Assembly: GCA_017540505.1 (NCBI GenBank)
Contig: JAFYAW010000005.1
Coordinates: forward strand, 2,197-66,196
Length of the DNA: 64,000 bases
Direction of reading: 5' to 3'
DNA from: Bacteroidales bacterium
GTDB taxonomy: Bacteria; Bacteroidota; Bacteroidia; Bacteroidales; WCHB1-69
How positions within the stretch are numbered: the stretch's first letter is position 1; the number at the start of each line of letters is the position of its first letter. A model generated the notes under the pieces. That model did no database searches, was not told the DNA's origin, and saw only the letters and a list, made by a program, of their open reading frames with translations. The position numbers and the translations under genes were made by a program. Shown piece after piece: positions 3,648 through 30,946 of the stretch.

Positions 3648-4028
3648 CTATTTGTTCTCTGTTAAAGTGGTAAGGATAACCGACATCTTGGAAAAAACGG
3701 TGTCGTTGTTCGACACAACAACTTTTACTTGAAAGCTGTTATCCTCTAAAGGTTCCCATGTCAGGTGGTAGTCCACCTGCTCGTGTTCATTAGGCCGGAT
3801 AATCTGGATGAACTTGATGCTTTTGGCCTGCGAAAGGATATATTCCTGCTGGTGGATATGTGAAAATAGGTCGATGGCGATTTGCACCACGCACACGCCC
3901 GGCGTGATAGGGTCGTTGGGGAAATGGCCGCCATATATGGGATGCAACGGATTCAGCCCAACTGTGAAAGTGGCTTCACTATCGTTAATGGTTTTAGAAT
4001 CAATGTGGAATAATGTATCAAGAAACAT
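3648..4028 (-). CDS. FabA/FabZ-like hotdog 3-hydroxyacyl-ACP dehydratase (aryl-polyene-type cluster)
   Basis: The GGHFPNDPITPGVCVVQ motif is typical of FabZ-type dehydratases; 126 aa; cluster context. Confidence 0.7.
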   Translation of the reverse strand: MFLDTLFHIDSKTINDSEATFTVGLNPLHPIYGGHFPNDPITPGVCVVQIAIDLFSHIHQQEYILSQAKSIKFIQIIRPNEHEQVDYHLTWEPLEDNSFQVKVVVSNNDTVFSKMSVILTTLTENK

Positions 4029-4036
4029 GGTTGTCG

Positions 4037-4681
4037 TTATTTGAACAGCGAATCCGAAAGGCTCAGGTTGGTCTTTTTATCGGAGAAGGTAATGGTGGTG
4101 GTGTCACCGCTGACCTCCTGCATGACCACTTTGTCGGCCAGCAGCGTTTTGGCATCCAGCGTGATGGTCATCTTAGTGTAGTATGCTTTGATGCGCTTGT
4201 TGACAGGGGTTAGCACGACTGTTATGGTGCCGGTTTTGCTGTTTTTATAATATTTTGCACTGAAATTGGTGGCGTCATTCAGGAAACTGCCGTTGATGGT
4301 GCCGATAATCATCGTTCCCATCTCGTTGAGCATCTTGTTGGGGTTCTGGACGGTGCCTTTGTCGGTCTTCAGCAACACTTTGCCATTGGCGAAAATGACC
4401 GTCATGGCTTTGGGCGATGTGTATTCCCAACGGAGCATCTTGGGGGATTTGTAGTTTAGCTTGCCTTTTTGGACAGCATCTTCCGTGAAGAGTGCGGAGC
4501 TCTTCCGCTGGGTGAATTGCGCACTCAGGGAGGTCATTTGCTTGTGGGCTTTCTCAATGGAGGCCGTCAGCGCACTGCGCTTGTCGCCAGTCTGCTCCAC
4601 ATCGCCGGCACTCTGGGCCTGCAACATCATGCACGATAGAAGTAGGGTGAATAGGAAGAGTGTTTTTTTCATAAGGTTCAT
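4037..4681 (-). CDS. LolA-like outer-membrane lipoprotein carrier family protein
   Basis: Signal peptide MNLMKKTLFLFTLLLSCMMLQAQS, an SLSAQFTQ motif, size near 210 aa, and the position that LolA-like genes take in APE clusters. Confidence 0.65.
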   Translation of the reverse strand: MNLMKKTLFLFTLLLSCMMLQAQSAGDVEQTGDKRSALTASIEKAHKQMTSLSAQFTQRKSSALFTEDAVQKGKLNYKSPKMLRWEYTSPKAMTVIFANGKVLLKTDKGTVQNPNKMLNEMGTMIIGTINGSFLNDATNFSAKYYKNSKTGTITVVLTPVNKRIKAYYTKMTITLDAKTLLADKVVMQEVSGDTTTITFSDKKTNLSLSDSLFK

Positions 4682-4862
4682 TTTTCAAACGCGGTTTGCT
4701 GTGACGGTGTTGTGAGCGATATGTTTAATTTTTTCCGAACAATCCTATAATTGTTTTTAATTAGATGTATTGGAGAACGATAATTGTTTTATTATATTGT
4801 GTTTTCAATAAAATTTTTATAATAAAATTAAAATAAATGTTTAAAATAATCTGATAATCAGA

Positions 4863-5219
4863 CTATTTTACAATGAAGAAAACCCCAATCATGATGATGA
4901 CGACCCCGATCCAGCGGGTGAGCGGCACGGCTTCGTGGAAGACAAACTGCGCGGCTATCAGCCCGATGATGTAGCTGATGGACAGTAACGGGTATGCCAC
5001 GCTGAACTCGTAGTGCTTCAGCACGTACATCCAGACCAGCATGGCGGACAAGGCGCAGAGGCCCGATGCCGCGAACTGCCAGGTGGTGAACACCGTCTTG
5101 AAGTAGGACCACGACCAGGAGAAGCTCCCGAATAGCTCCACGGAGATTTTCAGGAACGATTGTGCGGCCACTAACAGGACGGATTGTACTATAATCAATA
5201 TGATGAGTAGAATGGTCAT
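4863..5219 (-). CDS. Small 4-TM membrane protein (SMR/EamA-half, ArnE/F-like)
   Basis: 118 aa, almost entirely hydrophobic helices. Its start overlaps the upstream stop in an ATGA arrangement, suggesting translational coupling. Confidence 0.55.
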   Translation of the reverse strand: MTILLIILIIVQSVLLVAAQSFLKISVELFGSFSWSWSYFKTVFTTWQFAASGLCALSAMLVWMYVLKHYEFSVAYPLLSISYIIGLIAAQFVFHEAVPLTRWIGVVIIMIGVFFIVK

Positions 5220-7498
5220 TTTGATAGGAGTGTTAGGGCTTGGTCTTTGTTTTTAAAATGATTGAAGACCAAAATATTATGCGGGTTTTGAATTTCGGGG
5301 GCGGGATGGTAGAGCAGGTGGTTGGGAATGCGTCCGCGATGCAGGCATACAGCTCCGGCATAGAGTCCGAAAGCGGAGGCGCAGAAGGATTCACCGAAAA
5401 GATGCTTGTACCAGACGATGGGGATGTTGGGACAGAACTTCTGGTGGAAATCCTTATATACGAGGTCGTTGTCATTATCTCCACTGATGCCCATGACCAC
5501 GGCATCCACGTCGGAAAGCGTAATGCCGGCGCGGTTGAGCATCTCTTGAAGGATGTTACGCATCTCCTCATCGGAAGGCTGGTACAACATCCTCATGTCG
5601 TGGATGGCGCAGAGGGTGTTGCCGTCCCGCTGGTTTGTGAGCAGCATGTTCAGCGAGCAGCTGCCCGAGAACGAACCTTGCCGGTCGGAGGCTCGGAGCG
5701 CATCGGGCGAGATGTCGCCGTTTCTCCAATATCCGATCTTGCCTAACATCTCGAAATAGGCGGGGGTCATCTCCTCCTGGCCGCCCACGAGGGCGTTGCG
5801 GATGCGCCCGTGCCGTATCTGCGTGAGCGCGTCCAACAGCCCGCTGTCAAACGAGGTGCCGCGGTGCGAGTAGGTGCAGTTGTACCCGTGGCATTGGAGC
5901 TGGAGCGCCACCTGCGAGCTGATGGTGTTGTGCGTTGATTGCATGAAATAGGTGGGCTGCAGGTACTCCTCGCCGTTTTCTAACATGGAGACAAGGAATT
6001 TCTCTGTATTCTCAATACAGCCCAGTCCCGTGCCGGTGATGATGGCCTCCGGGATTGTCTCCCCTAAAGCCTGCTTGGCGGTGACGATAGCCCGTTTGAG
6101 CAGTTTCCCGAGGCGGCGGGCCACCATGGGAGGAAAGTGGTTTTTATAGTCGGGATCGTTGGATTCGTTGTAGGGTTGCGTGTGCGGTACCGGCATGTCG
6201 AACCAGTCGTCGCAGAGGGGTTGTTGGATGGAGATTTGCGCCACGGACTGGATGTAGCATGGCGATGTCTCGGGGAACGGGACAACGGGAGCGGCATTTT
6301 CAGGAATAGAGAAGATGCAGGAGGAGTCGTTGCCGCCGAATCCGAACGAGTTGGTGAGCACATGCTGCAATCCAGCCGGTTGGAGGACGTGGTCCACGGG
6401 GCGGAAGTTGTGTTTGTCGATGGCGTTTTGGAATCCTATGTTGGCGGGGATGAACTGATGTTGCAGAGCCAAAATGGAGATGACGCTTTCCACGCCGCCG
6501 GCGGCACTGGTGGTGTGTCCGGTGTAGGATTTTGTGGATGAGACGGGTGGCACGGTGTCGCCGAAGATGCGCATCATGGCGATGCCTTCACATTCGTCGT
6601 TGTTGCCAGTGCCGGTACCGTGCGCGTTGATGTAGTCGATGTCGGACGGTTGCAGGCCGCTTTGTTCCAACGCCTGACGCATGGCCAAGAAGGGCCCTTC
6701 GCCGTTAGGGGAGGTGGCGGTCTGGTGGTAGGCGTCGCAGGCGTTGCCGTAGCCAGAAAGTACGCACAAAGGCTTGATGTTGCGCTCGCAGGCACTCTCC
6801 GCACGCTCAATCACGAGGTAGGCGGCCCCTTCGCCGAGGTTCAGCCCATGACGGTCCGCGTCGAAGGGACGACAGGGCTGCGGGTCCAGAATCATCAGCG
6901 TGTTGAAGCCGTTGAGGTGGAAGGCAGAGAGGCACTCCGTGCCACCCACAACGGCCATGTCCACTTGTCCCGAGCGGATGAGGTCGGCGCCGAGGATGAT
7001 GGCGTTGGCCGCCGAGGAGCAGGCTGTGGAGATGGTGGTGATGAGGCTGAACTTGCCGGCATACTCTTCGGCAATCAGGTCGGTACAGGCTCCGCAGTCG
7101 TGCATAGCGATGTATTCCTTATGCTCTTCGTTAGTGCGGAAGTCATGGTAATAGCGCTCGCTCTTCTCCATGCCGCCGACAGTATTGCCGGAGATGAAGG
7201 CGATGCGCTTCCCGTCGGCGGTATCGGTCAGGTGTGCGTCCTCTATGGCTTCGCGCAAGGCCACACGGCCTAACAGGGATGTGCGGGTGATGATCCGGTC
7301 ATCGGGGAATCCGATGAGCGCCCTCAGCTCCTCATCGCTGTAGGGCACCTCGCCCACGGGCAGGTCCTTGTGCCGGGTTTGCAGATGACGGATGGGGGCG
7401 ATGGCTCGCTCTCCGGCCATCAGCATGCGGAGGGTGGACTCTTTGCCAGCCCCCAAAGCGGAAATAATCCCCATGCCGGTCACCACAATGCTGCCCAT
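5216..7498 (-). CDS. Fused beta-ketoacyl synthase plus chain-length-factor-like (KS-CLF) protein
   Basis: The N-terminal half has a Cys-His-His triad (ISTACSSAANAI, INAHGTGTGNND, YTGHTTSAAG). The C-terminal ~350 aa is KS-like but has no active-site Cys; 760 aa. Confidence 0.8.
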   Translation of the reverse strand: MGSIVVTGMGIISALGAGKESTLRMLMAGERAIAPIRHLQTRHKDLPVGEVPYSDEELRALIGFPDDRIITRTSLLGRVALREAIEDAHLTDTADGKRIAFISGNTVGGMEKSERYYHDFRTNEEHKEYIAMHDCGACTDLIAEEYAGKFSLITTISTACSSAANAIILGADLIRSGQVDMAVVGGTECLSAFHLNGFNTLMILDPQPCRPFDADRHGLNLGEGAAYLVIERAESACERNIKPLCVLSGYGNACDAYHQTATSPNGEGPFLAMRQALEQSGLQPSDIDYINAHGTGTGNNDECEGIAMMRIFGDTVPPVSSTKSYTGHTTSAAGGVESVISILALQHQFIPANIGFQNAIDKHNFRPVDHVLQPAGLQHVLTNSFGFGGNDSSCIFSIPENAAPVVPFPETSPCYIQSVAQISIQQPLCDDWFDMPVPHTQPYNESNDPDYKNHFPPMVARRLGKLLKRAIVTAKQALGETIPEAIITGTGLGCIENTEKFLVSMLENGEEYLQPTYFMQSTHNTISSQVALQLQCHGYNCTYSHRGTSFDSGLLDALTQIRHGRIRNALVGGQEEMTPAYFEMLGKIGYWRNGDISPDALRASDRQGSFSGSCSLNMLLTNQRDGNTLCAIHDMRMLYQPSDEEMRNILQEMLNRAGITLSDVDAVVMGISGDNDNDLVYKDFHQKFCPNIPIVWYKHLFGESFCASAFGLYAGAVCLHRGRIPNHLLYHPAPEIQNPHNILVFNHFKNKDQALTLLSK

Positions 7499-7504
7499 GA
7501 CGCT

Positions 7505-7762
7505 TTATTTTGTGCGGTTTGCTTGGATGTATTCGGCCATGACACGCACGGATTTGAAAATCTCCTTGCCTTGCTCGGCGTTGGCCAGCTTGATGCCGTA
7601 GTTCTTGTCCATGAGCACGATGAGTTCCAGTGCGTCGATAGAGTCCAGTCCGAGACCTTCCCCGAAGAGGGGTGCGTTCTCGTCGATATCGGCGGGCGTC
7701 ATGCCTTCTAAGTTCAACACGTCAATAATGCCTTCTTTTAATTCTAAAATCAAATCTTCCAT
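7505..7762 (-). CDS. Acyl carrier protein
   Basis: 85 aa with the phosphopantetheine-site motif GLGLDSIDALELIV. Confidence 0.85.
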   Translation of the reverse strand: MEDLILELKEGIIDVLNLEGMTPADIDENAPLFGEGLGLDSIDALELIVLMDKNYGIKLANAEQGKEIFKSVRVMAEYIQANRTK

Positions 7763-7794
7763 GTTATTGTGTTATATTTTAAAAATGATAAATT

Positions 7795-7829
7795 CTCTAA
7801 ACTCTAAACCCTCAACTCTCAACTAATTG
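7795..7829. repeat. Degenerate heptamer array (CTCTAAA)2 CCCTCAA CTCTCAA CTAATTG
   Basis: Read directly from the sequence. It overlaps the last 5 codons and the stop of the KS gene. Its reverse complement belongs to the same GAGTTKA family as 62801-62835. Confidence 0.8.
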
Positions 7830-9629
7830 ATAAAGGAACATCCTCACATCACACCTCCCCTCATCATAGTCCACCCAGCCGCAGATGAGGTGCTTGAGTT
7901 CGGGGTTCGCGGCCAAGGTCTGCACGGCTATGCGTTCCAAACGCTCGGGTGCGAAGTCGGGGAAGATGAGGAAGGAAGTCTCCCCGCCGATTTTGTGCCG
8001 GATGGCGATTTCGCCGGTGACGATGTTGGCCAACGTATAGACGAAGATGGCCGGGCTGGGGTAGTAGTTGCCCGCATCTCGGATGGTGGTCTGGTAATGG
8101 CGGTCGTCGTCCAAGGAAGACGCTTGGTTCATCAGCAGGATGCCCCAGTCTTCCTTGACCTGTTCGCGGTCGAAGTCCACGTCGCGCAGCAGGATTTCGG
8201 CGGCGAGGATGCCGGCCTTGCACAGGTTGTCCATCTTGAAGAATTTGGGGTACTGCATCCCGCTGGCGTGGTAGATGTCGGCCAGCCAGTTCTCGCATTG
8301 TACCCCGCGGGTGATGAAGGTTTCCCCGTTCAGGATGACCGCGTTATCCGTGATTTGGCACGTTGAGGCGATATGATGTTCCTGTAGAGACGCGATTAAT
8401 CGCGTCTCTACGGTTGACGGTTCGTTGGTTTTTGATTCAGACGCGATTAATCGCGTCTCTACAACGGATGATGGTTCGTTGGTGTGTGTGTGGTTTTCCA
8501 TCAGCAATGCCGCGTTGCTGCCGCCGAAGCCGGAGATGAGCTTCAGGAAGGTGTTGCCGTCGGTGGGCTGGTTTTGCAGGCTCACGTTGAGGCTTTGGAC
8601 GGTGCCGGGTTGTTCGGTGCCGAGTGTTCTGAGGATGGTGTGATGCTTGAGGGCCTGGTGCGACAGGATGGTTTCCAGCACGCCGGCAGCGCCTAAGGTG
8701 TGCCCGAAATAGCCTTTCAGACTGTTGACGGGTGTGTCTTGCAGGCCTGCGCGGTTGACGGCCACCGATTCCATGTCGTCGTTGTACAGGGTGGCGGTGC
8801 CGTGGGCGTTGATGAAGGCCAGACGGGAAAGGTCGTGCCCGTCGGTGACTTTGCGGATGGAGCGCAGAAGGCCTTCGCCCGTGCGGGAGGGCCCGGAGAT
8901 GTGGTTGGCATCGTTGTTGATGGCTCCGGCACGGAGAATCAGGGTGTTGTCGGGCAGGGCGATGTCGTCATCATCAATAGTATAGACGATGGCGGCGGCG
9001 GCTTCTCCCAAATTGAGACCGCAGCGGTTCGTGTCGAAGGGTTGGCATCGCTCTTTTGAGAGGGCCTTGAACGACTGGAAGCCGGAAACGATGAATTTGG
9101 AGAGTGTCTCGGCCCCGACGACTACAGCATATTTGTAGCCGCCGTGGCGGAGCAGGTTGGCAGCCGTTATCTGGGCGGCGCATCCGGAGATGCATGCGTT
9201 GCTGACCACCACCGGGGTGTTGGGGTTGTCAAAGAACTCAGCGATGAGTTGTGCCGAACGCCACAGATAGACGCGCTCCGGTTCGTATGGATTGTCTTCC
9301 AGCAGATCCACATTGCCCTTGGTGGTGGAGAGGATGAAGACGACATTGTCGCGGTCGGCGGCGATGTTGGCCTCTCCGATGGCCTGGCTGGCGGCGACGA
9401 TGGCGGCTTTTTCCATTCGGGTGTAACCGGCGGTGCCGCAATCCCACAGGGCGCTGAAAGCCTGGTCAAGGCGCTCCTCTTCAAAAAGGGAGAGGAAAGA
9501 TGGCTCGGGCAGTCCGAAGGCATGTTCGTAGTATTGCAGGCGGCTCTCTCCGCGAAGCACGGCCTCGAAGTTGCCGTGACTGGTCATGGCAAGGGGGGAA
9601 ATGATGCTGTCTCCAATACTGTAAATCAT
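7812..9629 (-). CDS. Beta-ketoacyl synthase fused through a palindrome-derived linker to a ~190-aa KS-partner-like domain
   Basis: KS triad SNACISGCAA, INAHGTATLYND, GYFGHTLGAAG, with the KS domain ending at GFGGSNAALLMEN. A 38-aa repeat linker follows, then a C-terminal domain (YPKFFKMDNLCKAGILAAEILL...). The ATG at 9629 (MIYSIGDS) is preferred over the GTG at 9650. Confidence 0.75.
   Translation of the reverse strand: MIYSIGDSIISPLAMTSHGNFEAVLRGESRLQYYEHAFGLPEPSFLSLFEEERLDQAFSALWDCGTAGYTRMEKAAIVAASQAIGEANIAADRDNVVFILSTTKGNVDLLEDNPYEPERVYLWRSAQLIAEFFDNPNTPVVVSNACISGCAAQITAANLLRHGGYKYAVVVGAETLSKFIVSGFQSFKALSKERCQPFDTNRCGLNLGEAAAAIVYTIDDDDIALPDNTLILRAGAINNDANHISGPSRTGEGLLRSIRKVTDGHDLSRLAFINAHGTATLYNDDMESVAVNRAGLQDTPVNSLKGYFGHTLGAAGVLETILSHQALKHHTILRTLGTEQPGTVQSLNVSLQNQPTDGNTFLKLISGFGGSNAALLMENHTHTNEPSSVVETRLIASESKTNEPSTVETRLIASLQEHHIASTCQITDNAVILNGETFITRGVQCENWLADIYHASGMQYPKFFKMDNLCKAGILAAEILLRDVDFDREQVKEDWGILLMNQASSLDDDRHYQTTIRDAGNYYPSPAIFVYTLANIVTGEIAIRHKIGGETSFLIFPDFAPERLERIAVQTLAANPELKHLICGWVDYDEGRCDVRMFLYQLVES
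8384..8492. repeat. Tandem REP-like unit (x2) containing GTAG-headed perfect palindromes, followed by (TG)5
   Basis: GTAGAGACGCGATTAATCGCGTCTCTAC at 8384-8411 is a perfect 28-bp palindrome. A second copy has a perfect 20-bp core at 8439-8458. Each copy is followed by GGTTCGTTGGT, with a period of 51-54 nt. (TG)5 lies at 8483-8492. Confidence 0.9.
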
Positions 9630-9668
9630 ACACTTATGTGTAAAAACCACCTAATTTAAAATAGGGCG

Positions 9669-9676
9669 CAAATATA
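9669..9676 (-). promoter_or_regulatory. Candidate Bacteroidetes -7 promoter box (TATATTTG) for the lower half of the PKS cluster
   Basis: Matches TAnnTTTG, 40 nt upstream of the ATG at 9629. Confidence 0.4.
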
Positions 9677-9699
9677 CAAAAATTCGGCAATTACGGGGA

Positions 9700-10016
9700 T
9701 TCCCCTCACATTAGAACGTGATCTATGCCCCGATAGGGTCAAAAGCCCGGTAGAAACGTGCCACATGCCCCCACGTCCCGTCAGGAACTTGGGGAGATTC
9801 CGCCGCTCCTTTCGTCGCCGGCGGAATGGTGCAAACCTCACTTGCTGTTCAGGCGGCGGCAGACGGTCTTTCCCCAAAAACCAAATTCTTGTGCCGCCGC
9901 ATTCTTGTTTTGGCCTACACGCACCATTCCGCGAAACGCAATAGCGTTGAGCGGAATCCCCAAACATTCAGTAAACCGCAAACCGAAAAATCACTACCTT
10001 TGCCCCCGCAATGAAC
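9700..10016 (+). repeat. Mosaic hairpin repeat, copy A (core 9791-9961 bounded by inverted termini GGGGAGATTCCGC / GCGGAATCCCC)
   Basis: The 9791-10016 stretch aligns by eye almost base-for-base with 40990-41217. The upstream module 9726-9788 matches 35004-35068. Conserved stems include ATTCCGCCG/CGGCGGAAT, GCGGCGGCA/TGCCGCCGC and ATTCCGC...GCGGAAT. Confidence 0.8.
9995..10002 (+). promoter_or_regulatory. -7 promoter box TACCTTTG at the 3' edge of repeat copy A
   Basis: TAnnTTTG match, identical in sequence and position to the box in copy C (41196-41203). The next plus-strand gene starts at 10323. Confidence 0.4.
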
Positions 10017-10122
10017 CGACTTCGCACATATAGCCCCACCACCTCCCGCCGCGCGTTTCCCGCTCCGCCCGCGCAGGCGTACGCGCCCGCCAGTAGGACG
10101 CAGAGGCGCGGGAACTCCCATA

Positions 10123-10150
10123 CTGACCACTGTTCACTGATTACTGCTCA
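10123..10150. repeat. Heptamer array CTGACCA CTGTTCA CTGATTA CTGCTCA
   Basis: Read directly from the sequence. It is the reverse complement of the TGAACAG/GTGAWYA family seen at 11832-11887. Confidence 0.6.
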
Positions 10151-10322
10151 CAGGACCCACACCTTCTCCCCAAAAGAAAAGGACACCGAAACCGGCTTTT
10201 CAGTTACCTCGCTGTGCTCGGGTTCCTCCTTTTCGCTTAGCCAAACCCAAACAAGTTTGGTTTGGCATTCGCTCATGCGTCGGTTTGGCGCAAGGTATTA
10301 TTAAAAAATAAGTGTTTTTGTT

Positions 10323-10979
10323 ATGAAAAGAGTCATGACACTTTTGGCAATCCTGACGACAGCCGTGCTCTCTTCGGCTCAGAACGACAATGATCGCTAT
10401 GGCTACGACAACATCTTGTTTTCCTATGAAATAAGACAAATGGATAGTGTGATTTTTGTTGATAAAATTGCCAACCAGTCAACAACGGCGATATGTGTTG
10501 AAAAGAAAAACTTGTTAAAGTTTGCAGATAAGGATTCTTCCTTCTATACCTACTGGGAAGTACTGCCGGATGCATTCAGATTTTTGGATCCGGACTGGTT
10601 TCCTTTTATTTTCCATTATGTCATACCGTTCATTTCGGACACAGCTGTCGTTTCAACAATAAAAAAACAATATTTTGAAAACGGGTTATGCAAAGTTGGA
10701 TATAGTGACCTGTGGGGTGGCACCCGACGCGAGCGTATTCCTTTCCATAATCTTACATATTCCTATTTGAATTGTAATCATTATTTGGTTTTGTTGATGC
10801 CATACAAGTTTTATGACGAACATGTGGAGTATTTATGTATTCTTGATTATGATACTCATACTAAAAGACATTTCCAAACAGCCTTGCTGAAAACACCATT
10901 TGCCGAAGGATTCTATATAAAGTTGCTGTTGCCGTTGTTTTATTATCAAGATTCCGCAAACAAAAATGTATCAGAATAG
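10323..10979 (+). CDS. Hypothetical secreted protein (AT-rich orphan)
   Basis: Signal peptide MKRVMTLLAILTTAVLSSAQ. No motif recognised. Visibly lower GC than its neighbours, and on the opposite strand to the surrounding cluster. Confidence 0.5.
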   Translation: MKRVMTLLAILTTAVLSSAQNDNDRYGYDNILFSYEIRQMDSVIFVDKIANQSTTAICVEKKNLLKFADKDSSFYTYWEVLPDAFRFLDPDWFPFIFHYVIPFISDTAVVSTIKKQYFENGLCKVGYSDLWGGTRRERIPFHNLTYSYLNCNHYLVLLMPYKFYDEHVEYLCILDYDTHTKRHFQTALLKTPFAEGFYIKLLLPLFYYQDSANKNVSE

Positions 10980-10986
10980 TTTTATA

Positions 10987-11090
10987 CCCAACTCCCAATA
11001 ACCAACTGCCTTAACTCCTTAGTTCCTTAACTTCTTAACTATAGCCCCAACTCCCCAACTGCCAATGGCCAACAGCTAACACCCAATCCC
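10987..11090. repeat. Low-complexity array of 7-8-mers (CCCAACT-like units plus TTAACTCC TTAGTTCC TTAACTTC TTAACTAT)
   Basis: Read directly from the sequence. The octamer block 11011-11042 matches the block at 15818-15849. Confidence 0.75.
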
Positions 11091-11107
11091 ACGTCTTCAA
11101 ATTTTAT

Positions 11108-11115
11108 TACCTTTG
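11108..11115 (+). promoter_or_regulatory. -7 promoter box TACCTTTG
   Basis: TAnnTTTG match, 25 nt upstream of the ATG at 11140. Confidence 0.5.
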
Positions 11116-11139
11116 CAGCGGATTTTAAAAACACGGATT

Positions 11140-11382
11140 ATGAAACGATTCCTACTTATAATGACGGTAGTGGCCGGTGTGGGCCTCCTCTTTTCGGCCT
11201 GCACCAAACAGTGCGACTGCCACAAGGTTACGCATTACAGCACTACCAGTACAGAACAGTATTATACGGAAACGGTGGATGCGGAAACTGCCTGCAGCAG
11301 CCTCAACGGCGAATTTTTCCATGAGGATATGTATGGCAATACGGTCAGTGTGGATGTGGTGACCTGCACGAATGCCATGTAG
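11140..11382 (+). CDS. Small Cys-rich lipoprotein, hypothetical
   Basis: MKRFLLIMTVVAGVGLLFSAC gives a lipobox, and the mature part has five further Cys residues; 80 aa. The TTG at 11113 in the ORF track overlaps the promoter box, so the ATG at 11140 is preferred. Confidence 0.5.
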   Translation: MKRFLLIMTVVAGVGLLFSACTKQCDCHKVTHYSTTSTEQYYTETVDAETACSSLNGEFFHEDMYGNTVSVDVVTCTNAM

Positions 11383-11388
11383 CGTCCG

Positions 11389-11814
11389 TTAGCAAAGACC
11401 GTTGATTTTTTTCCATTCGGTATAAAACGCTGGAGTCTGCCATACCAGCTGGTGTTGCATATCTAAAAACACCTGCACCGAGTGTCCTGTGACGAGAATC
11501 TCGTCGGTGTCGGCGTGGCGTATCTCATAGTCGAAAATAATCTTCGCCGCATCGGTCTCCCGATAGGTGCAGATGACCCGTAGCTTGTCGTCGAGTGTGG
11601 CAGGCCTCTTGTATTGGATGCTCAACTCCACCAAGGGCGCGTAAAAGCCCATCTCGTACATGTGCAGGTACTCAAGATGGTAGGTCTTCCCAAAAAGCTC
11701 GCGGGCATCCTCAAAATACAGGGCGTAATTTCCATGCCATACGATGCCCATGGAGTCCACCTCGCTGAAACGCACCTCCACCTCTTTCTCAACTTGCAAT
11801 TTCTTTTGGGTCAT
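11389..11814 (-). CDS. 4HBT/YbgC-type acyl-CoA (acyl-ACP) thioesterase
   Basis: Hotdog thioesterase motif RFSEVDSMGIVWHGNYALYFEDAR; 141 aa; cluster context. Confidence 0.75.
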   Translation of the reverse strand: MTQKKLQVEKEVEVRFSEVDSMGIVWHGNYALYFEDARELFGKTYHLEYLHMYEMGFYAPLVELSIQYKRPATLDDKLRVICTYRETDAAKIIFDYEIRHADTDEILVTGHSVQVFLDMQHQLVWQTPAFYTEWKKINGLC

Positions 11815-11831
11815 GATTTTCGGTTTTATAT

Positions 11832-11887
11832 GTGAATAGTGAATAGTGATTAGTGATTAGTGAACAGTGAACAGTAGTCAGTGATTA
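11832..11887. repeat. Heptamer array (GTGAATA)2 (GTGATTA)2 (GTGAACA)2 GTAGTCA GTGATTA
   Basis: Eight consecutive heptamers read directly from the sequence. The array abuts and overlaps the stop codon of the dehydratase gene. Confidence 0.9.
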
Positions 11888-12295
11888 ATTGCCAATAACA
11901 AACACTTTCATGTCGCACTGCGCAATCATCTCTTCCTCCTGTCGTATCTCGGCGTGTACGATGATGGCCTCGAAGACCTCATTGGCGACGGTGACGGTGG
12001 TCTGCAGCACCTCGTCGGCAGCGGGCCGCCGGAAGACTTCGAAATGGTTGATGGAACCGATGACTCCGATGCGGACGGGCTTGTCCTGATTGAGCCATCC
12101 GATACGCGCGGCGCAGGTCTGCGCGATGTTCTCCATCAATCCCGATTCCGATAGAAGCTCGTCGCGCAGGAAAATGCAGTCGGTGGGGATGCGGAAGTCG
12201 GTGCGCACCGTGATAGGGTCGCAGCTCAGGAGATTGTCCACCATGACCATAGGTGGACGTTGCGGGATGAATGGAAGAGCAGGTGTGGGGAACAT
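11885..12295 (-). CDS. Hotdog-fold dehydratase (ApeI/ApeP-like)
   Basis: 136 aa. An N-terminal LPFIPQRPPMVMVDNLL motif is recalled from APE-cluster dehydratases. The call rests mostly on context. Confidence 0.55.
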   Translation of the reverse strand: MFPTPALPFIPQRPPMVMVDNLLSCDPITVRTDFRIPTDCIFLRDELLSESGLMENIAQTCAARIGWLNQDKPVRIGVIGSINHFEVFRRPAADEVLQTTVTVANEVFEAIIVHAEIRQEEEMIAQCDMKVFVIGN

Positions 12296-12301
12296 GTTGT
12301 C

Positions 12302-13387
12302 TTATTTGAGTTTGCACTGCATGATGCTGTGTCCGAGGCCAAGTCCGTCGTGGATGCACTCAATGGCCAGTCCGGCATCCGCCACACAACGGGCCATGTC
12401 GCCAGAGTAGTACATCTTGCTATTTCCGTTGGCTAATGCGGTGAAATAAAGGCTGATCTGTGCCATACAATAGGAGGCGGTCTCAAAACGCTGACGGTCC
12501 CAAAAGGTCTCCATGATGTAGAGCCGGCTGTCGTGGTTCATGGCAGCGGCGGCGCGACTCAATATGCTGGTGACCTCCTCTTCGGAAAAACAGTCGAGGA
12601 ACTGGCTCATCCAGATGGCGTTGAATCCCGTGGGGAAGGGCACGCTGGGGTCCAGGAGGTTGCAGCCGTGCCCGTGGATGCGGTCGGCACCCTCTAATCC
12701 TTTGGTCTGTTCGCGCATCATCGCCAACTGTTGGGGCAGGTCCATGATGGTGACGTGCACCTGTGCGTCGAAGCCCACACAGCGCATGGCCCAGCGTCCG
12801 GTGTTGCCTCCCACATCCAACAGCGTCTTGGGCTGCCGTGAAAAGACAATCTCCAAGGCTTGCGAGAAGGAATTGTCGGAGTAGAAATGGTCGAAGCCAA
12901 ACCAGCTTTTCTGCACTTGCGGGGGCAGCTGTGAGAGCCCTTCGTAGATGGTGGGCCACTCGCCAAACACTTTCAGCCCTTCCGGCTTGCCGTTGAGGAT
13001 GGCCTCTTCCAGACGGAACAGCCCGAGGTAGTTCACGTCGTGGTTGAAGTCCATGTTCACGCGGGCCATCTCGTCGTTGAGCAGGAACCAGCCGGCCTTG
13101 GCCAGATGGAAGTGGTCATCACGCATGGTGACGGTGCCGGTGGTCAGCGAGGATTCTAACAGGACCTTGGCCCCGTAGAGCGAGATGCCGGCCCGTTGGG
13201 CCACCTCCTCCATCGTAAGCCCCTCTTTCTCATCACCCAACATCTGGAAGATGCCGAATTTGACCATGAGACGGGCCACTTGGAACACGATGGGACCGAA
13301 GGCGATTTCCTGGGCCAGACGCTGTGCCTGCATGGCGGTGAAGCGGTCTTTGGCGTACATTTCTTTTTGCGGAGAGGATAATTCCAT
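12302..13387 (-). CDS. Class I SAM-dependent (O-)methyltransferase with an N-terminal dimerisation/winged-helix domain
   Basis: SAM motif I LLDVGGNTGRWA; 361 aa. Confidence 0.75.
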   Translation of the reverse strand: MELSSPQKEMYAKDRFTAMQAQRLAQEIAFGPIVFQVARLMVKFGIFQMLGDEKEGLTMEEVAQRAGISLYGAKVLLESSLTTGTVTMRDDHFHLAKAGWFLLNDEMARVNMDFNHDVNYLGLFRLEEAILNGKPEGLKVFGEWPTIYEGLSQLPPQVQKSWFGFDHFYSDNSFSQALEIVFSRQPKTLLDVGGNTGRWAMRCVGFDAQVHVTIMDLPQQLAMMREQTKGLEGADRIHGHGCNLLDPSVPFPTGFNAIWMSQFLDCFSEEEVTSILSRAAAAMNHDSRLYIMETFWDRQRFETASYCMAQISLYFTALANGNSKMYYSGDMARCVADAGLAIECIHDGLGLGHSIMQCKLK

Positions 13388-13401
13388 GGGATTATGTTTT
13401 T

Positions 13402-14316
13402 TTAGGATTTTACGTTTTGAGGTTCCAACTGCCAGAAATCATACAGGTTGAACCATTGTTCCGGATATTGTTTGAGGATGTTCTCCACGGCGGTCACATA
13501 CTGGTGGAGCAGATTTTCCGTTTGCGCGGTGACACTGGTCAGGGTATGGTCTGCCGTCAGTGGGATGATGTAGCCCTTGTAGTCTCTTCTTTTCTCTTTC
13601 ATCAGAAAGACGGCCAGCATTGGAATCTCCATCTGGGCGGCCAGTCGGAACGGCCCGACGGGGAATTCAGCGGGATGTCCGAGGAAATCGACCACTTTCT
13701 TTTTGGGGCTTCCGAAGATGCGGTCGCAGTGGATGGTGAGGATCTCGCCGTTGTCAAGGGCGTTCTTGATGGCGAACAGGTGCGACATATCCGGCATCAC
13801 CGGGATGAGCCTGACGTGGTTTTCCTTGAAGGTGTCGATTCTCCGTTGCTGCATCTCCGGATTCTCACCGCCAAAGATGATGCCGTTGATGGGCTTCTTG
13901 TCCTGTTTGAGGCAATGCCCCAACAGTTCGAAGTTGCCGATGTGGGAACCTGCCAGCATAAACCCGGAGGGCTGGTCCAGCAGGTCGTGGAACAGATGCC
14001 GGTCGGGGATGTCCACCGTGAACTGGTCGCTGCGACCGGCCAGCAGGGCGAACTTGTCAATGACCACTTTGCCGAAGGTGTGCGCCGTGCGGGCCGTGGC
14101 TTTCAGGGCACGCCACCGGCTGTAGCCATGTATCTGATGGAAATAGTTGTAAAGAGCCCGGTTGGGCTTTCGCGATAACAGCAGGCAGAATGGGATGATC
14201 AGGTAGAGGATGGGGTAGAGGGTTGTGACCTTGATGTGCCGCAGCAGAACGAACAGGAAATGCTGACCGAACTTGCCGCCGCTTGTCTTGCCTTGCCACT
14301 GCCGCGTTTCCGCCAT
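13402..14316 (-). CDS. LpxL/HtrB-family lysophospholipid/lipid A acyltransferase
   Basis: A HIGNFE catalytic-type motif (HxGNWE family) and an N-terminal TM segment; 304 aa. Confidence 0.7.
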   Translation of the reverse strand: MAETRQWQGKTSGGKFGQHFLFVLLRHIKVTTLYPILYLIIPFCLLLSRKPNRALYNYFHQIHGYSRWRALKATARTAHTFGKVVIDKFALLAGRSDQFTVDIPDRHLFHDLLDQPSGFMLAGSHIGNFELLGHCLKQDKKPINGIIFGGENPEMQQRRIDTFKENHVRLIPVMPDMSHLFAIKNALDNGEILTIHCDRIFGSPKKKVVDFLGHPAEFPVGPFRLAAQMEIPMLAVFLMKEKRRDYKGYIIPLTADHTLTSVTAQTENLLHQYVTAVENILKQYPEQWFNLYDFWQLEPQNVKS

Positions 14317-14317
14317 C

Positions 14318-14569
14318 TTATTCTTTCACTTTGTTGGCGATATAATCGTAAAATTGCCCCAGTGTCTTCACATCCTTCATCTCTTCCGGCTTGATCTTGA
14401 AGCCGAAGTTGCGTTCTACGATGACGACGATATCCACGAAGTCCAGACTGTCAATGCCTAAATCTTCCTTGAGCAGGGCTTCCTCTTTCAGCAGATTCTC
14501 TTCTATCTCAATCTCTTCAACTAAAAAGTTGTTCACCGTTTTGATGACGTCTTCTCTTTGCATATTCAA
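14318..14569 (-). CDS. Acyl carrier protein
   Basis: 83 aa with the DLGIDSLDFVDIVV motif. Confidence 0.85.
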   Translation of the reverse strand: MNMQREDVIKTVNNFLVEEIEIEENLLKEEALLKEDLGIDSLDFVDIVVIVERNFGFKIKPEEMKDVKTLGQFYDYIANKVKE

Positions 14570-14574
14570 TTTTA

Positions 14575-15795
14575 TTATTTGATTTTCTTAATGACCAATG
14601 CGCTGTTGGTACCGCCGAATCCGAAGGAGTTGGAGAGGTACACATCGATGTTTTTTTCTATGGTTTTGTTGATGATGTTCAAATGTTGGGAATATTCGTC
14701 GGGATTCTCGAAGTTGATGTTAGGGGCGATGAAGGAGTTGAGCATCATCAGGTTGGAATAGACGATCTCGCTGGCACCGGCCATCCAGCATTCGTGGCCG
14801 GTCATGGCTTTGGTGGAGCTGATGGGAGTGTGACACTCGCCGAACAGTGCCTGCAGGCTCATGGCTTCAAAGGCGTCGCCCTGAAGGGTGGAGGTGGCGT
14901 GTGCGTTGATGTAGTCGATGTCCGCAGGCATCACGCCGGCATCCTGCATGGCGCGGCGCATGGCGGTGGCGGACCCGTGGTCGCTGGGTTGCGAGATGTT
15001 GGCCCCGTTGGAGGAGAACCCGTACCCGGCGACCTCGGCGATGATGGGTGCGCCGCGCCGGACTGCGTGTTCGTACTCTTCCAAAATCAGCGTGGCGGCA
15101 CCGCCGCTGGGCACTAACCCGTCGCGGTCGCGGTCGAAAGGACGCGAGGCCTTCGTGGGGTCGTCGGTCCGAATGGAAAACGCTCCGATGCCATCGAAAC
15201 TTCCCATGGAGAGGTAGCTCGTCTCCTGCGCACCGCCGCAGATGACCACATCCTGCATCCCGTTGCGGATGAAGAGCAGACCTAACCCGATGGCGTGCGA
15301 GCCGCTGGCACAGGCCGCGCTGATGGTTATGTTCACCCCACGCAGCTTGAAGATGGTGGACAGGTTCATGGTCACCGTTGAGTTCATAGATTGGAAGATG
15401 GCTCCGGAACCCATCATCTGGGTGTCTTTGTACTGCATGGCCGTGGAGTGGGCCTCAATGACCGCCTTGGCCGACGAGTCGTTGCCGTAGAAAATGCCGA
15501 CTTCGTTTTGGGCGAGATAGTCCAGGTCGATGCCGGCGTTTTTCAGGGCTTCGGCAGTGGCCATGTAGGCGTATTCGCCCTCCTCGGCCAGACACACGCG
15601 CGAACGGCGGTCCAACAGCCCCTTCAGCATCGGACGCTCCAACAGACCAGTCAGCGGCGAACGATAGCCGTACTCCAACCGCGCCGGGTCAATGCCGATG
15701 CCCGACTTTCCGGCATACAACGACTTCGTCACCTCGTCCAGATTCTTCCCCAGACAAGAGTAAATACCCATTCCCGTAATGACAACACGTCTCAT
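14575..15795 (-). CDS. Beta-ketoacyl-ACP synthase (FabB/FabF-like)
   Basis: ISAACASGSHAIG (Cys), INAHATSTLQGD and MTGHECWMAG (His, His), and FGFGGTNSALVI at the C-terminus. Confidence 0.85.
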   Translation of the reverse strand: MRRVVITGMGIYSCLGKNLDEVTKSLYAGKSGIGIDPARLEYGYRSPLTGLLERPMLKGLLDRRSRVCLAEEGEYAYMATAEALKNAGIDLDYLAQNEVGIFYGNDSSAKAVIEAHSTAMQYKDTQMMGSGAIFQSMNSTVTMNLSTIFKLRGVNITISAACASGSHAIGLGLLFIRNGMQDVVICGGAQETSYLSMGSFDGIGAFSIRTDDPTKASRPFDRDRDGLVPSGGAATLILEEYEHAVRRGAPIIAEVAGYGFSSNGANISQPSDHGSATAMRRAMQDAGVMPADIDYINAHATSTLQGDAFEAMSLQALFGECHTPISSTKAMTGHECWMAGASEIVYSNLMMLNSFIAPNINFENPDEYSQHLNIINKTIEKNIDVYLSNSFGFGGTNSALVIKKIK

Positions 15796-15809
15796 TTTGA
15801 ACTGTGAAC

Positions 15810-15849
15810 TTTCAATCTTAACTTCTTAGTTTCTTAACTTCTTAACTTA
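15810..15849. repeat. Octamer array TTTCAATC TTAACTTC TTAGTTTC TTAACTTC TTAACTTA
   Basis: Read directly from the sequence, in the spacer between fabG and the KS gene. Confidence 0.8.
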
Positions 15850-15869
15850 ATTGATAGGGGTCTCTGCAT

Positions 15870-16598
15870 TTACGTATAAAGCCCCCCATTAATCGAAATC
15901 GCCTCCCCGGTGATGTAGGCGGCGTCGTCCGAGGCGAGGAAGCCTACCAGTGCGGCCACCTCTTCCGGCTTGCCGAAACGTCCGGCGGGAATCATCTTCT
16001 TGAAGTCAGCCTCGTTGAAATCCTTGGTCATATCCGTCTGGATGAACCCGGGTGCCACGGCATTCACGGTGATGTTCCGCGATCCGATCTCCTGGGCTAA
16101 TGCCTTCGTGGCTCCGATCAGGGCCGCCTTGGCCGCCGAATAGTTGGTCTGGCCGGCCTGTCCCTTCAGTCCGGAGAGGGAGGCCATGTTTATGATGCGT
16201 CCCTTGCGGTGCCCGATCATGCCCTTGAGCAGCCGGCGCGTCGTGTAGAAGAATCCGTTGAGGGTGGTGTTCAGCACAGACTGCCAGTCGCTGTTCTGCA
16301 TGAAGACCATCAGCGTGTCTTTCCGGATGCCGGCATTGTTGACCAGCACCCCGATATAGTCATCAGGATGGGCGGCCTGCCACGTGTCGATGGCCTGGTC
16401 CACGGCCTCGCTGTCGCACACGTCGAAGGGCAGTAGCTCGGCCACGCCGCCCGCCTCTGCGATGAGTTTCTGTGTCTCTAAAGCCGCGTCACGGTTGGAC
16501 TGGTAATTTATCAGGACCGGGAATCCCATAGCGGCGAGTTTCTGGCAGACAGCTCTGCCAATTCCGCGGGAACCACCGGTAATGAGTGCATAATTCAT
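15870..16598 (-). CDS. fabG: 3-oxoacyl-ACP reductase (SDR)
   Basis: TGGSRGIGRA Rossmann motif and NYSAAKAALIG catalytic YxxxK; 242 aa. Confidence 0.85.
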   Translation of the reverse strand: MNYALITGGSRGIGRAVCQKLAAMGFPVLINYQSNRDAALETQKLIAEAGGVAELLPFDVCDSEAVDQAIDTWQAAHPDDYIGVLVNNAGIRKDTLMVFMQNSDWQSVLNTTLNGFFYTTRRLLKGMIGHRKGRIINMASLSGLKGQAGQTNYSAAKAALIGATKALAQEIGSRNITVNAVAPGFIQTDMTKDFNEADFKKMIPAGRFGKPEEVAALVGFLASDDAAYITGEAISINGGLYT

Positions 16599-30073: not shown

Positions 30074-30230
30074 ACTGATCCTCCTTTTTAATGCGTCCGT
30101 ATTAACGATTCAGCACGCGTTTTATTGCATGAAATGCGAAATGATTGTTGTTCGTATATGGCATTTGAAATTGCGAATACAATGAACGATTAATTTTAAT
30201 GATGGTTGCCCCAATTGTTTGCCCTAATCG

Positions 30231-30310
30231 TTGGGCCGCCAAATCATGACGGATTGTTGGGCCGCCAAATCATGACGGATTGTAGAGCCGCCATACTATG
30301 ACGGCTCTAC
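30231..30310 (+). repeat. REP/BIME-like array: two identical 26-nt degenerate units plus one full GTAG-headed hairpin
   Basis: TTGGGCCGCCAAATCATGACGGATTG occurs twice (30231-30282), followed by GTAGAGCCGCCATACTATGACGGCTCTAC (30282-30310; 9-bp outer stem). Confidence 0.85.
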
Positions 30311-30388: not shown

Positions 30389-30946
30389 ATGTCGGATGAT
30401 AAATTTCAAAACAAATATCGAATTAAATCTGTGCGCGCAGCATGGCATGATTATAATGGGGGTGGGTATTTTGTGACAATATGCACACGTAATCGTGAAC
30501 ACTATTTTGGTGAGATTTCGGGAGGTGTTATGCATTTAACCCCAATAGGCAGATTTGCAAATGATTGTTTGATGAAAATGGAAATATTACATAATGATGT
30601 GCAAATTCCGATTTGGCAAATAATGCCGGATCACATTCATGCAATTGTTATAATCGAAAACGTAGAGCCGCCATATTATGTCGGCTCTACGACAAATCAA
30701 TTGAATGTTAGAAAATCCGTTACAATTAAAAATGCATATATGCAGTATGTTGCCAATAAATGCGGACGATTATCACATGTTATATCCAGAATGAAAACGG
30801 CAATATCCAAATATGCCCATCAAAACGGCCTGCCTTTCGGTTGGCAGTCGCGGTTTTATGACCGGATAATCCGCAACGGTAAGGAAATGAATAGAATAGC
30901 CACTTACATTGAACAGAATGTGGCAAAATGGGAGAGTGAAAGGTGA
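30389..30946 (+). CDS. REP-associated tyrosine transposase (RAYT; IS200/IS605-like Y1 HUH enzyme)
   Basis: HUH motif MPDHIHAIV and a catalytic-Tyr region GWQSRFYDRIIRN; 185 aa. AT-rich. REP hairpins lie upstream and inside the ORF. Confidence 0.75.
   Translation: MSDDKFQNKYRIKSVRAAWHDYNGGGYFVTICTRNREHYFGEISGGVMHLTPIGRFANDCLMKMEILHNDVQIPIWQIMPDHIHAIVIIENVEPPYYVGSTTNQLNVRKSVTIKNAYMQYVANKCGRLSHVISRMKTAISKYAHQNGLPFGWQSRFYDRIIRNGKEMNRIATYIEQNVAKWESER
30662..30690 (+). repeat. REP hairpin inside the RAYT ORF
   Basis: GTAGAGCCGCCATATTATGTCGGCTCTAC differs at 2 positions from the upstream hairpin. It encodes VEPPYYVGST between the HUH and Tyr motifs. Confidence 0.9.

Follow-up and report, generated by a model that had tools for sequence, protein, structure and literature searches.

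The 64-kb stretch of DNA analysed here, hereafter the window, carries on its minus strand, at 3648-16598, an APE-like set of genes, with Pfam hits across the interval, that comprises a ketosynthase (KS), CLF, ACP, ApeI/ApeP-type dehydratases, a ketoreductase, a thioesterase, a methyltransferase, a lipid-A-type acyltransferase and part of a LolA-like exporter. With this co-located gene set, the locus belongs to the aryl-polyene/flexirubin type of cluster; its host is an uncultured Bacteroidales bacterium from the rumen. One of its minus-strand open reading frames (7812..9650), for a pigment-pathway enzyme whose length is 605 aa if translation starts at the ATG (9629) and 612 aa if it starts at the GTG (9650), joins a KS to a smaller partner domain through a linker that contains two copies of a palindrome. 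An identical protein, P0121, is found on 22 independent contigs, and the hairpin-bearing ORF is therefore not an assembly artefact.

A ketosynthase and its partner joined by a linker with two palindromes

The KS domain (8502-9629, minus strand; residues 1-376; Pfam PF00109 and PF02801, NCBIfam beta-ketoacyl-ACP synthase) ends at GFGGSNAALL, and its Cys-His-His triad (C146, H276 and H310) is invariant in an alignment of 23 homologues. It is followed by an interdomain linker of 47 codons (8361-8501, minus strand; residues 377-423), delimited by motif alignment and predicted to be disordered: in the AlphaFold2 model, whose pTM is 0.87 as a whole, residues 384-414 have a pLDDT below 50 and are devoid of secondary structure. 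The partner domain (7812-8360, minus strand; residues 424-605 and the stop codon) is half-size, is modelled with a mean pLDDT of 88 and has no start codon of its own within the single 605-aa ORF. No Pfam match is found for it, even at E<=10, and it shares 13-20% identity with solved CLFs. Its best Foldseek matches are all CLF chains (6kxe_B, 6kxd_B, 7f28_C (AbApeC), 1tqy_B and 6qsp_B (ApeC)), with TM scores of 0.50-0.67 normalised by query length, in agreement with the CLF-like nature that had been proposed for the C-terminal domain. The arrangement is reminiscent of the ApeO:ApeC KS-CLF heterodimer (6QSP; 7F28, PMC8358021), in which a KS is also paired with a half-size CLF of a single thiolase fold; in Xenorhabdus and Acinetobacter, however, ApeO and ApeC are two separate polypeptides, whereas in the window they correspond to one chain with a repeat in its linker.

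The downstream copy in coding order, copy B (GTAGAGACGCGATTAATCGCGTCTCTAC, 8384-8411), is a perfect 28-bp palindrome. The upstream copy A (8439-8463) matches it at 25/28 nt: its core AGACGCGATTAATCGCGTCT at 8439-8458 lies exactly 51 nt past positions 8388-8407 of copy B, identity extends via CTCTAC to 8463, and the other foot, TTC instead of GTAG, is degenerate. Both belong to a minus-strand tandem duplication in a 51-nt register (8388-8483), the unit of which consists of ACCAACGAACC (TNEP), 7-9 nt and the hairpin. The palindrome, its second copy 51 nt further on and the adjacent (TG)5 at 8483-8492, or (CA)5 in coding orientation with HTHT as its translation, are thus re-found as the original prediction had placed them, and so are its minus-strand reading of the linker and the position of the domain junction. 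Two of its details can be refined. GGTTCGTTGGT does occur after each copy (8419-8429 and 8473-8483), but 7 and 9 bases away from it rather than adjoining it. Two of the three frames of the palindrome are indeed open, one starting GTA GAG ACG (VET...SLQ) and the other reading RDAINRVS, but the third contains TAG besides TAA.

On the minus strand, copy B is translated as VETRLIASLQ and copy A as VVETRLIASES. As single-stranded DNA, copy B folds into a 12-bp stem with a 4-nt loop (-13.1 kcal/mol, z -7.0), and the hairpin of copy A is weaker (-8.9 kcal/mol). In the mRNA, pairing between the two copies is a further possibility, giving a helix of 25 bp, and the linker region folds at -51.5 kcal/mol (z -6.7). 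The 22-mer core and the pattern GTAGAG-N(12-24)-CTCTAC were matched in 0/100 shuffles, so that none is expected by chance. An Rfam search at the hairpin site returned no family. The hairpin pair is predicted to lie in a disordered tether between the KS and the CLF-like domain, and no role of its peptide at the protein level is indicated beyond spacing. These results show that such an element is able to live in coding DNA, because each of its strands has two of three frames free of stops and because any sequence is acceptable in the tether.

The repeat family and its RAYTs

According to Quentin et al. (2018; PMC6006769), a 'double-foot' REP starts with GT[AG]G at its 5' end, continues with a stem-loop and ends with the reverse complement C[TC]AC at its 3' end; REPs of subclass 2.4 occur in Bacteroidetes and Cyanobacteria, and REP insertions in unrelated genes are tolerated where they fall in linkers or loops that are flexible. 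The 28-mer of the window agrees with this definition, with GTAG...CTAC surrounding a 12-bp stem and a 4-nt loop. Its family, of signature GTAGAGACG...CGTCTCTAC, co-occurs with subclass 2.4 RAYTs (TnpA_REP) of Bacteroidota and Cyanobacteria. All these results make it probable that we are dealing with two tandem 'double-foot' REPs from a family tied to subclass 2.4 RAYTs, inserted in the tether between the KS and the CLF-like domain. The earlier idea that the linker is the in-frame translation of a mobile hairpin of REP type is supported, and the locus provides a clear case of a known phenomenon.

Within the window, the family is represented at the KS-linker site alone, and its dispersal is seen in other DNA. 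Viral contigs contain 86 stretches of the family; among the 84 distinct sites analysed, 43% lie under ORFs of at least 150 aa, versus 81% of random positions. Bacteroidales DNA totalling 2.16 Mb contains 11 further sites, and the same 28-31 nt are present in plasmids of cyanobacteria. A blastn search of a phage collection with a 32-mer gave no match, and no RAYT was found beside the hairpins on the viral contigs. The family is predominantly extragenic, and the KS-linker copy is intragenic.

The window also contains a RAYT gene (30389-30946, plus strand), whose 185-aa product (TnpA_REP, subclass 2.4-like) is matched by Pfam Y1_Tnp and by NCBIfam REP_Tyr_transpos, the latter with E=8e-12 and 45 bits, under the 80-bit cutoff. 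It displays the HUH motif PDHIHAI, with DHIH where most of its homologues have NHIH, as well as GWQSRFYD (W-Q-S-R-F-Y-D) and a C-terminal Tyr in ATYIEQN(V), and it aligns with E. coli TnpA_REP (4ER8), with some 39 aa inserted past the HUH motif. Subclass 2.4 is described as having a HuH motif NH[IFV]H, a conserved WQ, a Y motif YIxNNP and, between HuH and Y, a variable insertion bearing a REP (PMC6006769); the gene of the window fits this description, including the REP-coded insertion after HuH. The insertion contains the variant GTAGAGCCGCCATATTATGTCGGCTCTAC (30662-30690), read in frame as VEPPYYVGST, as described for the in-ORF REPs of this subclass (PMC6006769). A REP array (30230-30310) lies upstream; it begins with two degenerate units of 26 nt (GTTGGGCCGCCAAATCATGACGGATT) and continues with GTAGAGCCGCCATACTATGACGGCTCTAC (30282-30310), about 80 bp ahead of the RAYT ATG.

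The link between the hairpin family and RAYTs, anticipated in the original prediction, is borne out by the homologues of this protein, about 118/120 of which have hairpin-coded peptides just past HUH, at the same position as in the window RAYT. One such peptide, GRDAINRVST, is the 28-mer of the window read in its other open frame; others (VETVHAPSLQ, VETFHETSLQ and ETQNFASLQ) correspond to variants that are also present in KS linkers. In L251, a locus from another metagenome sample, the exact 28-mer is found 50 bp upstream of the RAYT P0190 (2424-2451) and again inside it (2796-2823). The proposal that the RAYT of the window itself mobilised the hairpin fares less well: its own REPs are of a different, rare variant, which elsewhere is present on 1 viral contig and in 0 of the other fetched loci, and the exact 28-mer goes with P0190, which is 49% identical to it. 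A RAYT search in the KS loci gave one weak match. If our reading is right, a P0190-like RAYT with a GATTAATC core is expected in the source organism.

The window pair resembles the REPs of PMC6006769 in its 5' GT[AG]G, its 3' reverse complement and its long stem. It differs from them in lying at a KS/CLF junction, which is a boundary between separate genes in many relatives, and in having a history that can be traced at one orthologous site, with core turnover and a polymorphic unit number. Intragenic REPs have also been described by Di Nocera et al. (2013; PMC3733652), who report the GTAG type from Proteobacteria, Cyanobacteria, Chloroflexi and the PVC group and list Bacteroidetes with CGTC repeats only; the sequence family of the window differs from theirs. 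Both these GTAG/CGTC REPs and the Rickettsia palindromic elements (RPEs) are, like the window pair, small palindromic repeats read in frame in host proteins that are probably still functional, and they often form dimers coding for 20-30 residues. Membership of the RPEs was nevertheless rejected on length, sequence and host: these are elements of about 100-150 bp from Rickettsia, whereas the window repeat measures 28 bp, has another sequence and belongs to Bacteroidales, and in-frame insertion is the sole likeness. Intercistronic REPs are known from operons, for instance between malE and malF of E. coli. There too a hairpin marks the border of two functionally coupled cistrons; in the window, however, this border is translated, and no split relatives with this REP in the spacer were found.

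Split and fused junctions

Separate polypeptides are the commonest state of the KS and its partner, in line with the original prediction: about 80% of 150 cluster representatives of the partner domain stand alone (about 200 aa), and distant loci are split. Comparison of orthologous junctions within Bacteroidales reveals both states, with 44 fused and 36 split among 80 species, and fused forms whose linkers are unrelated occur commonly in other parts of the order, Prevotella and Muribaculaceae among them. The junction therefore appears to have switched repeatedly between split and fused. An ancestral fusion was considered because the 120 best homologues are all 566-667 aa long; it was rejected, as this ranking favours full-length matches and the tblastn HSPs crossed in-frame stop codons.

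The original prediction held that the REP landed in, or replaced, the intercistronic spacer and its stop codon, fusing the two genes at the base of the clade to which the window belongs. Separate genes are common and probably original, and the two open frames of the REP are compatible with such an event. In the GTDB tree, the fused species that bear the hairpin form one clade (100% bootstrap), which joins all-split species with 95% support. Its nearest species-level sisters are all split (bootstrap 95-100%), and long spacers of 113-237 nt, rich in repeats, occur in some of them; taken alone, these sisters would point to a fusion event basal to the hairpin clade. The long spacers of the sister clades contain heptad-type simple repeats only, with no hairpin remnant, and none of about 57 split junctions contains a hairpin of this family. 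A fusion clearly derived in this clade, as deduced from the tree of GTDB species, was weakened once the parsimony set was extended with metagenomic fused lineages: fused hairpin-free lineages (P0049-P0053, P0059, P0062, P0069 and P0070) branch among the sisters, so that fusion-first and hairpin-first histories are tied at 5 changes each. Relatives that are fused without the hairpin, which had been named in advance as evidence against this scenario, thus do exist among the nearest lineages, although the nearest GTDB sisters are split. Furthermore, the sole insertion that is directly seen entered a linker that was already fused: P0091 and P0101 differ by a 102-nt in-frame insertion containing the hairpin, between near-identical flanks. 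This filled/empty allele pair is an indirect sign, read from sequences, of REP mobility. The hairpin is probably not the maker of the gene fusion, and this scenario is unlikely.

Retention and turnover of the hairpin

The clade of orthologues (about 70-100% identity) shares the site and the frame of the hairpin: 16 orthologue DNAs carry it there, 4 of them in degenerate form (L089, L090, L173 and L176). It is clearly encoded by 43/47 protein clusters of at least 70% identity, with a mutated or degenerate copy in 2 more, and three members of the clade (P0032, P0038 and P0048) have lost it while keeping an intact ORF. Pairwise comparison of the orthologues gives an identity of 0.885 for the outer stem and 0.558 for four-fold sites, against 0.343 for the core, which evolves faster than neutral and yet stays palindromic. 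Covariation is strong, with 27 cells changed on both sides versus 7.6 +/- 2.2 in shuffles (0/500). Core variants in the KS linkers match other RAYT-linked REPs.

The above-neutral conservation of the outer stem, which includes synonymous positions, could mean that the hairpin is selected, beyond mere tolerance. It might be kept as a nucleic-acid element, either as an mRNA structure acting on ribosome pausing between the two domains or on mRNA decay, or as a DNA site for a RAYT or another protein, as the covariation and the very stable mRNA fold would also suggest. The losses and degenerate copies reported above argue against this possibility, as does the presence of the same element in unrelated loops and intergenic sites that share no context; core turnover above neutral, towards other RAYT-linked REPs, fits replacement better than a site-specific function, and the absence of a T run after the hairpin excludes an intrinsic terminator. 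We therefore regard such a function as quite improbable. It is hardly conceivable, on the other hand, that the peptide VET-x4-SLQ is selected as a protein motif, such as a docking or cleavage site in the linker: V-E-T and S-L-Q do recur in most orthologues, but the codons are fixed (GTA GAG ACG ... TCT CTA CA) and do not vary synonymously, other proteins contain this DNA in the RDAINRVST frame, the palindrome is also intergenic, and these residues fall in a predicted disordered region.

Within the preferred reading of a RAYT-linked REP pair, the following history can be proposed. The KS and its partner would originally have been encoded by two translationally coupled genes, and their junction would have flipped many times in Bacteroidales between split and fused, often by a single stop codon. 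In the ancestor of the clade of the window, a REP would have landed in the junction, most probably in a linker already fused, and the hairpin would since have been retained at this site and in this frame. Its apical 8-10 nt would have been replaced repeatedly with the palindrome preserved; swaps with other REP variants and correction templated by the hairpin are candidate processes. In the sub-lineage of the window, the 51-nt unit would finally have been duplicated in tandem, to give the present one or two copies, always in frame.

A bolder idea, which we consider rather unlikely to hold, is that REPs at fixed sites are updated in place, by core swap or by hairpin-templated synthesis that restores the palindrome, with their 9-bp feet kept, and that, separately, REP-rich intercistronic junctions of biosynthetic clusters behave like hinges for gene fusion and splitting. 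If so, the apical 8-10 nt would take the variant of the currently active RAYT/REP lineage, and the KS-partner junction would be a natural record, constrained by the frame, of how REPs are gained, lost, duplicated and given new cores.

In-frame copies are useful witnesses of how REPs spread and persist, because the reading frame demands clean gain, loss, duplication and recombination and because orthologues give dated before/after states. The KS-partner junction records a filled/empty allele pair, a polymorphism in unit number and a site where the feet of the stem are conserved and the core is fast. It also indicates that a KS/CLF heterodimer can become, and repeatedly became, a single chain with an arbitrary tether, which is of practical interest for the engineering of type II PKS pairs. 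Finally, peptides such as VET-x4-SLQ and RDA-x3-RVST in Bacteroidales or cyanobacterial proteins should be annotated with caution, as they are translated REPs and not protein motifs.

Variation between strains concerns the unit number. P0122 and P0123, which belong to the same cluster of at least 90% identity as the window protein, carry a single unit (NEPSSVETRLIASLQEHH) against two in the window, always in frame, which confirms the suspected length variability of the tandem units. The (TG)5, also suspected to vary, shows no variation in length among 10 cluster members spanning the linker. Slippage at this site had been imagined to toggle between fused and split products; a slip of +/-CA leads to a stop at codon 390 or 396, which truncates the protein just past the KS, the partner domain being without a start codon.

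Two REP copies in the tether of a KS-CLF fusion

The feature at 8384-8492 is a translated pair of double-foot REPs (small hairpin elements with GTAG 5' and CTAC 3'), belonging to the family of RAYT (REP-associated transposase) subclass 2.4 and lying in the predicted disordered tether between a ketosynthase (KS) and a chain-length-factor (CLF)-like partner domain. It contains a perfect 28-bp palindrome, GTAGAGACGCGATTAATCGCGTCTCTAC (8384-8411), and a second copy, offset by exactly 51 nt, in which the inner 20 nt recur (8439-8458) and the match extends via CTCTAC to 8463, the other foot being degenerate. GGTTCGTTGGT is found 7 and 9 nt beyond the two copies, and (TG)5 at 8483-8492. The palindrome core and GTAGAG-N(12-24)-CTCTAC find no match in shuffles of the window, and a scan for perfect hairpins with a stem of at least 9 bp gives five in 64 kb, versus 0-5 in shuffles, two of the five being the palindrome copies. 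The hairpins are real, and the original prediction was right to call them REP-like. The 10-bp stem with a 6-nt loop at 554-579, followed by TTTTT, resembles an intrinsic terminator and is unrelated to the REP family.

Both copies lie in a minus-strand ORF (7812..9650; 605 aa from the ATG at 9629), whose product is identical to a database protein found on 22 contigs and whose nearest species-level relative is from a rumen Bacteroidales MAG (84% identity). Residues 1-376 form the KS (Pfam PF00109 and PF02801), with C146, H276 and H310 invariant among homologues. No Pfam family matches residues 424-605, even at E<=10; their predicted fold is confident (mean pLDDT 88), and their top structural matches are CLF chains, namely those of ishigamide (6kxe_B, 6kxd_B) and actinorhodin (1tqy_B), and ApeC of Acinetobacter (7f28_C) and Xenorhabdus (6qsp_B). 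ApeC is a half-size CLF with a single thiolase fold, forming a heterodimer with ApeO (PMC8358021). In the full-length model (pTM 0.87), linker residues 384-414 fall below a pLDDT of 50 and lack secondary structure, and the REP-coded residues are therefore predicted to form a disordered tether between the two domains.

The same-strand neighbours (ApeI-like dehydratase, LolA-like protein, ACP, thioesterase, O-methyltransferase, lipid-A-type acyltransferase, another KS, ketoreductase and a second KS-CLF fusion) fit an aryl-polyene/flexirubin-type cluster. The second fusion (5216-7498, minus strand, 760 aa) has a CLF-like domain with PF13723, and its linker carries no palindrome. A 2,988-aa minus-strand ORF at 19562-28528 has internal repeats and a signal-like N-terminal segment.

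The REP family and its transposases

With feet and outer stem held fixed, the family pattern GTAGAGACGC-N8-GCGTCTCTAC matches 86 stretches of viral contigs, the commonest N8 being GATTAATC (as in the window), AAAATCTT or AAAATATT; the resulting structure is a 12-bp stem, including two variable pairs, with a 4-nt loop. Stop-to-stop ORFs that reach 150 aa or more overlie 43% of the 84 distinct viral-contig sites, versus 81% of random positions; the family thus favours intergenic DNA, with a sizeable intragenic minority. At sites more than 50 codons from both ORF ends, the frame is VET...SLQ in 15 and RDA...RVST in 3. Plasmids from Nostoc, Calothrix, Kovacikia and other cyanobacteria carry the same 28-31 nt as well, and in the Halotia branconii plasmid NZ_CP124544.1 (locus L248, 1501-1529) essentially the same palindrome encodes, in frame, VQTRLIASLH within the variable loop of an adenylation domain in an NRPS. 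Related genomes carry further in-frame copies in other genes around the KS locus (fetched loci L149, 10151-10178; L143, 9874; L100, 17644, and L189, 13286; L103, 16230, and L185, 12518), with the peptides VETFHETSLQ, VETCYGASLL and EETHECASLQ/IETHGRSSLQ; one copy lies in an N-terminal loop of the KS itself, where relatives keep degenerate remnants. In-frame REPs are an already known phenomenon, intragenic ones having been catalogued earlier (Di Nocera et al., 2013); the present case contributes an evolutionary history that is well resolved, and a junction with repeated switching between one gene and two.

The RAYT gene of the window (30389-30946, 185 aa) encodes a HUH motif, W-Q-x-R-F-Y-D and a C-terminal Tyr, and its product aligns to E. 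coli TnpA_REP. Its own GTAGAGCCGCC...GGCTCTAC hairpins lie about 80 bp upstream (30230-30310) and, in frame, directly after the HUH motif (30662-30690). About 118 of the 120 best homologues have at least one hairpin-coded peptide at this position, with variants differing between homologues, a trait matching that published for subclass 2.4. Three of these peptides (VETVHAPSLQ, VETFHETSLQ, ETQNFASLQ) also occur in KS linkers of other genomes, and a fourth, GRDAINRVST, is the window's 28-mer in its second open frame. Subclass 2.4 is plentiful among Cyanobacteria and Bacteroidetes, has double-foot REPs and carries REPs in frame inside tnpA_REP, between HuH and Y; flexible linkers or loops are remarked to tolerate REPs in unrelated genes (Quentin et al., 2018). 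The RAYT/REP set described here matches every listed point.

The neighbouring RAYT had been proposed as a candidate mobiliser of the linker hairpin. Its own REP variant is different and rare, being found in one viral contig and in none of the other fetched loci, and the enzyme is therefore a relative of the cognate one and probably not itself cognate. The exact 28-mer is found at locus L251, 50 bp upstream of RAYT P0190 and, at the DNA level, within the P0190 gene. RAYTs P0182 and P0225 each have their own variant inside the ORF, the latter also with copies just downstream.

One gene or two at the KS-partner junction

As tblastn HSPs concealed in-frame stops, junctions were read directly. Among 80 Bacteroidales species, the gene is fused in 44 and split in 36, and more distant loci are split nearly throughout. 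In the split form, the stop lies 5-8 codons past GFGGSNAALL and the ATG about 10 codons ahead of the conserved C-x-I-T. Since, furthermore, among the 150 best cluster representatives of the partner domain about 80% stand alone as proteins of ~200 aa, two separate genes are the common and probably the original form.

The hairpin was initially thought to have created the fusion. A tree of GTDB species only, in which the hairpin-bearing fused clade (100% bootstrap) joins all-split sisters at 95%, would favour a fusion at the base of that clade. When metagenomic proteins are added, fused hairpin-less lineages fall among the split sisters, and equal-cost parsimony is tied at 5 changes either way. 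None of roughly 57 split spacers carries a family hairpin; fusions whose linkers are unrelated occur commonly throughout Bacteroidales; and the sole difference between the near-identical homologues P0091 and P0101 is a 102-nt in-frame insertion in P0091, made of two hairpin units and GGNGACA heptads, in a linker already fused. The balance therefore tips towards a fusion that preceded the hairpin, creation of the fusion by the hairpin being less likely.

At the 36 split junctions (loci L089-L168), KS and partner are in the same frame in 26 (binomial p = 2e-6 against 1/3, ignoring kinship), 23 of them parted by a single stop (TAA 12, TAG 8, TGA 3), a pattern that might stem from frequent switches between stop and sense codons or from read-through; the split junctions of distant relatives have no such bias (5/24). 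Spacers of the distant relatives L234, L241 and L243, of about 145 nt, contain a different inverted repeat, CACTAATT...AATTAGTG; unrelated repeats have thus colonised this junction in other lineages.

Turnover of the linker hairpin

Among 16 DNAs of orthologues from the window's clade, hairpin position and frame are identical, while the cores vary: CGATTAATCG (window), CAAGGCCTTG, CACGGCCGTG, GTGCATGCAC, CATAATTATG and CAAAATTTTG. The 18 positions of the outer stem have a mean pairwise identity of 0.885 and the 10 of the core one of 0.343, compared with 0.558 for four-fold degenerate sites in the domains on either side. The two sides covary strongly: pairing is kept in 91% of cells, and changes on both sides occur in 27, versus 7.6 +/- 2.2 in shuffles (0/500). 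Core self-complementarity reaches the very centre, which a 4-nt-loop hairpin does not need; we infer that the core changes result from swaps for other REP variants or from palindrome-restoring template switching, and not from point-mutation drift under selection. The hairpin is degenerate in four orthologues (L089, L090, L173, L176). It is clearly encoded in 43 of 47 protein clusters at >=70% identity, mutated or degenerate in P0001 and P0003, and not seen in P0032 and P0038; P0048, within the clade by tree, lacks it with its ORF intact.

The tandem units do form a length-variable site, as had been suggested: P0122 and P0123, of the cluster at >=90% identity, have one unit versus two in the window. 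P0124 and locus L001 have two, the downstream core differing from the window's, and L091 and L178 are one 18-nt half-hairpin unit apart. Slippage at the (TG)5 had also been expected to toggle between fused and split products. A slip of +/-CA would bring in a stop at codon 390 or 396, and the first Met of the partner lies 34 residues inside the domain; slippage would therefore abolish the partner, without separate products, and (CA)5 is constant among 10 close variants spanning the linker.

In the neighbouring clade, at ~55-60% identity, linkers have gained and lost hairpins, duplicated in tandem (P0090 versus P0088) and recombined between two hairpins (P0105 versus P0108), in frame in every case. 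In fused P0071-P0110, the first beta-strands of the partner (C-x-I-T...LNG) are seemingly swapped for a repeat-derived linker (QGSG.SDQ, NSQFTIHN, QGTGDRGQ); the split members of that clade, L143 and L149, keep these strands.
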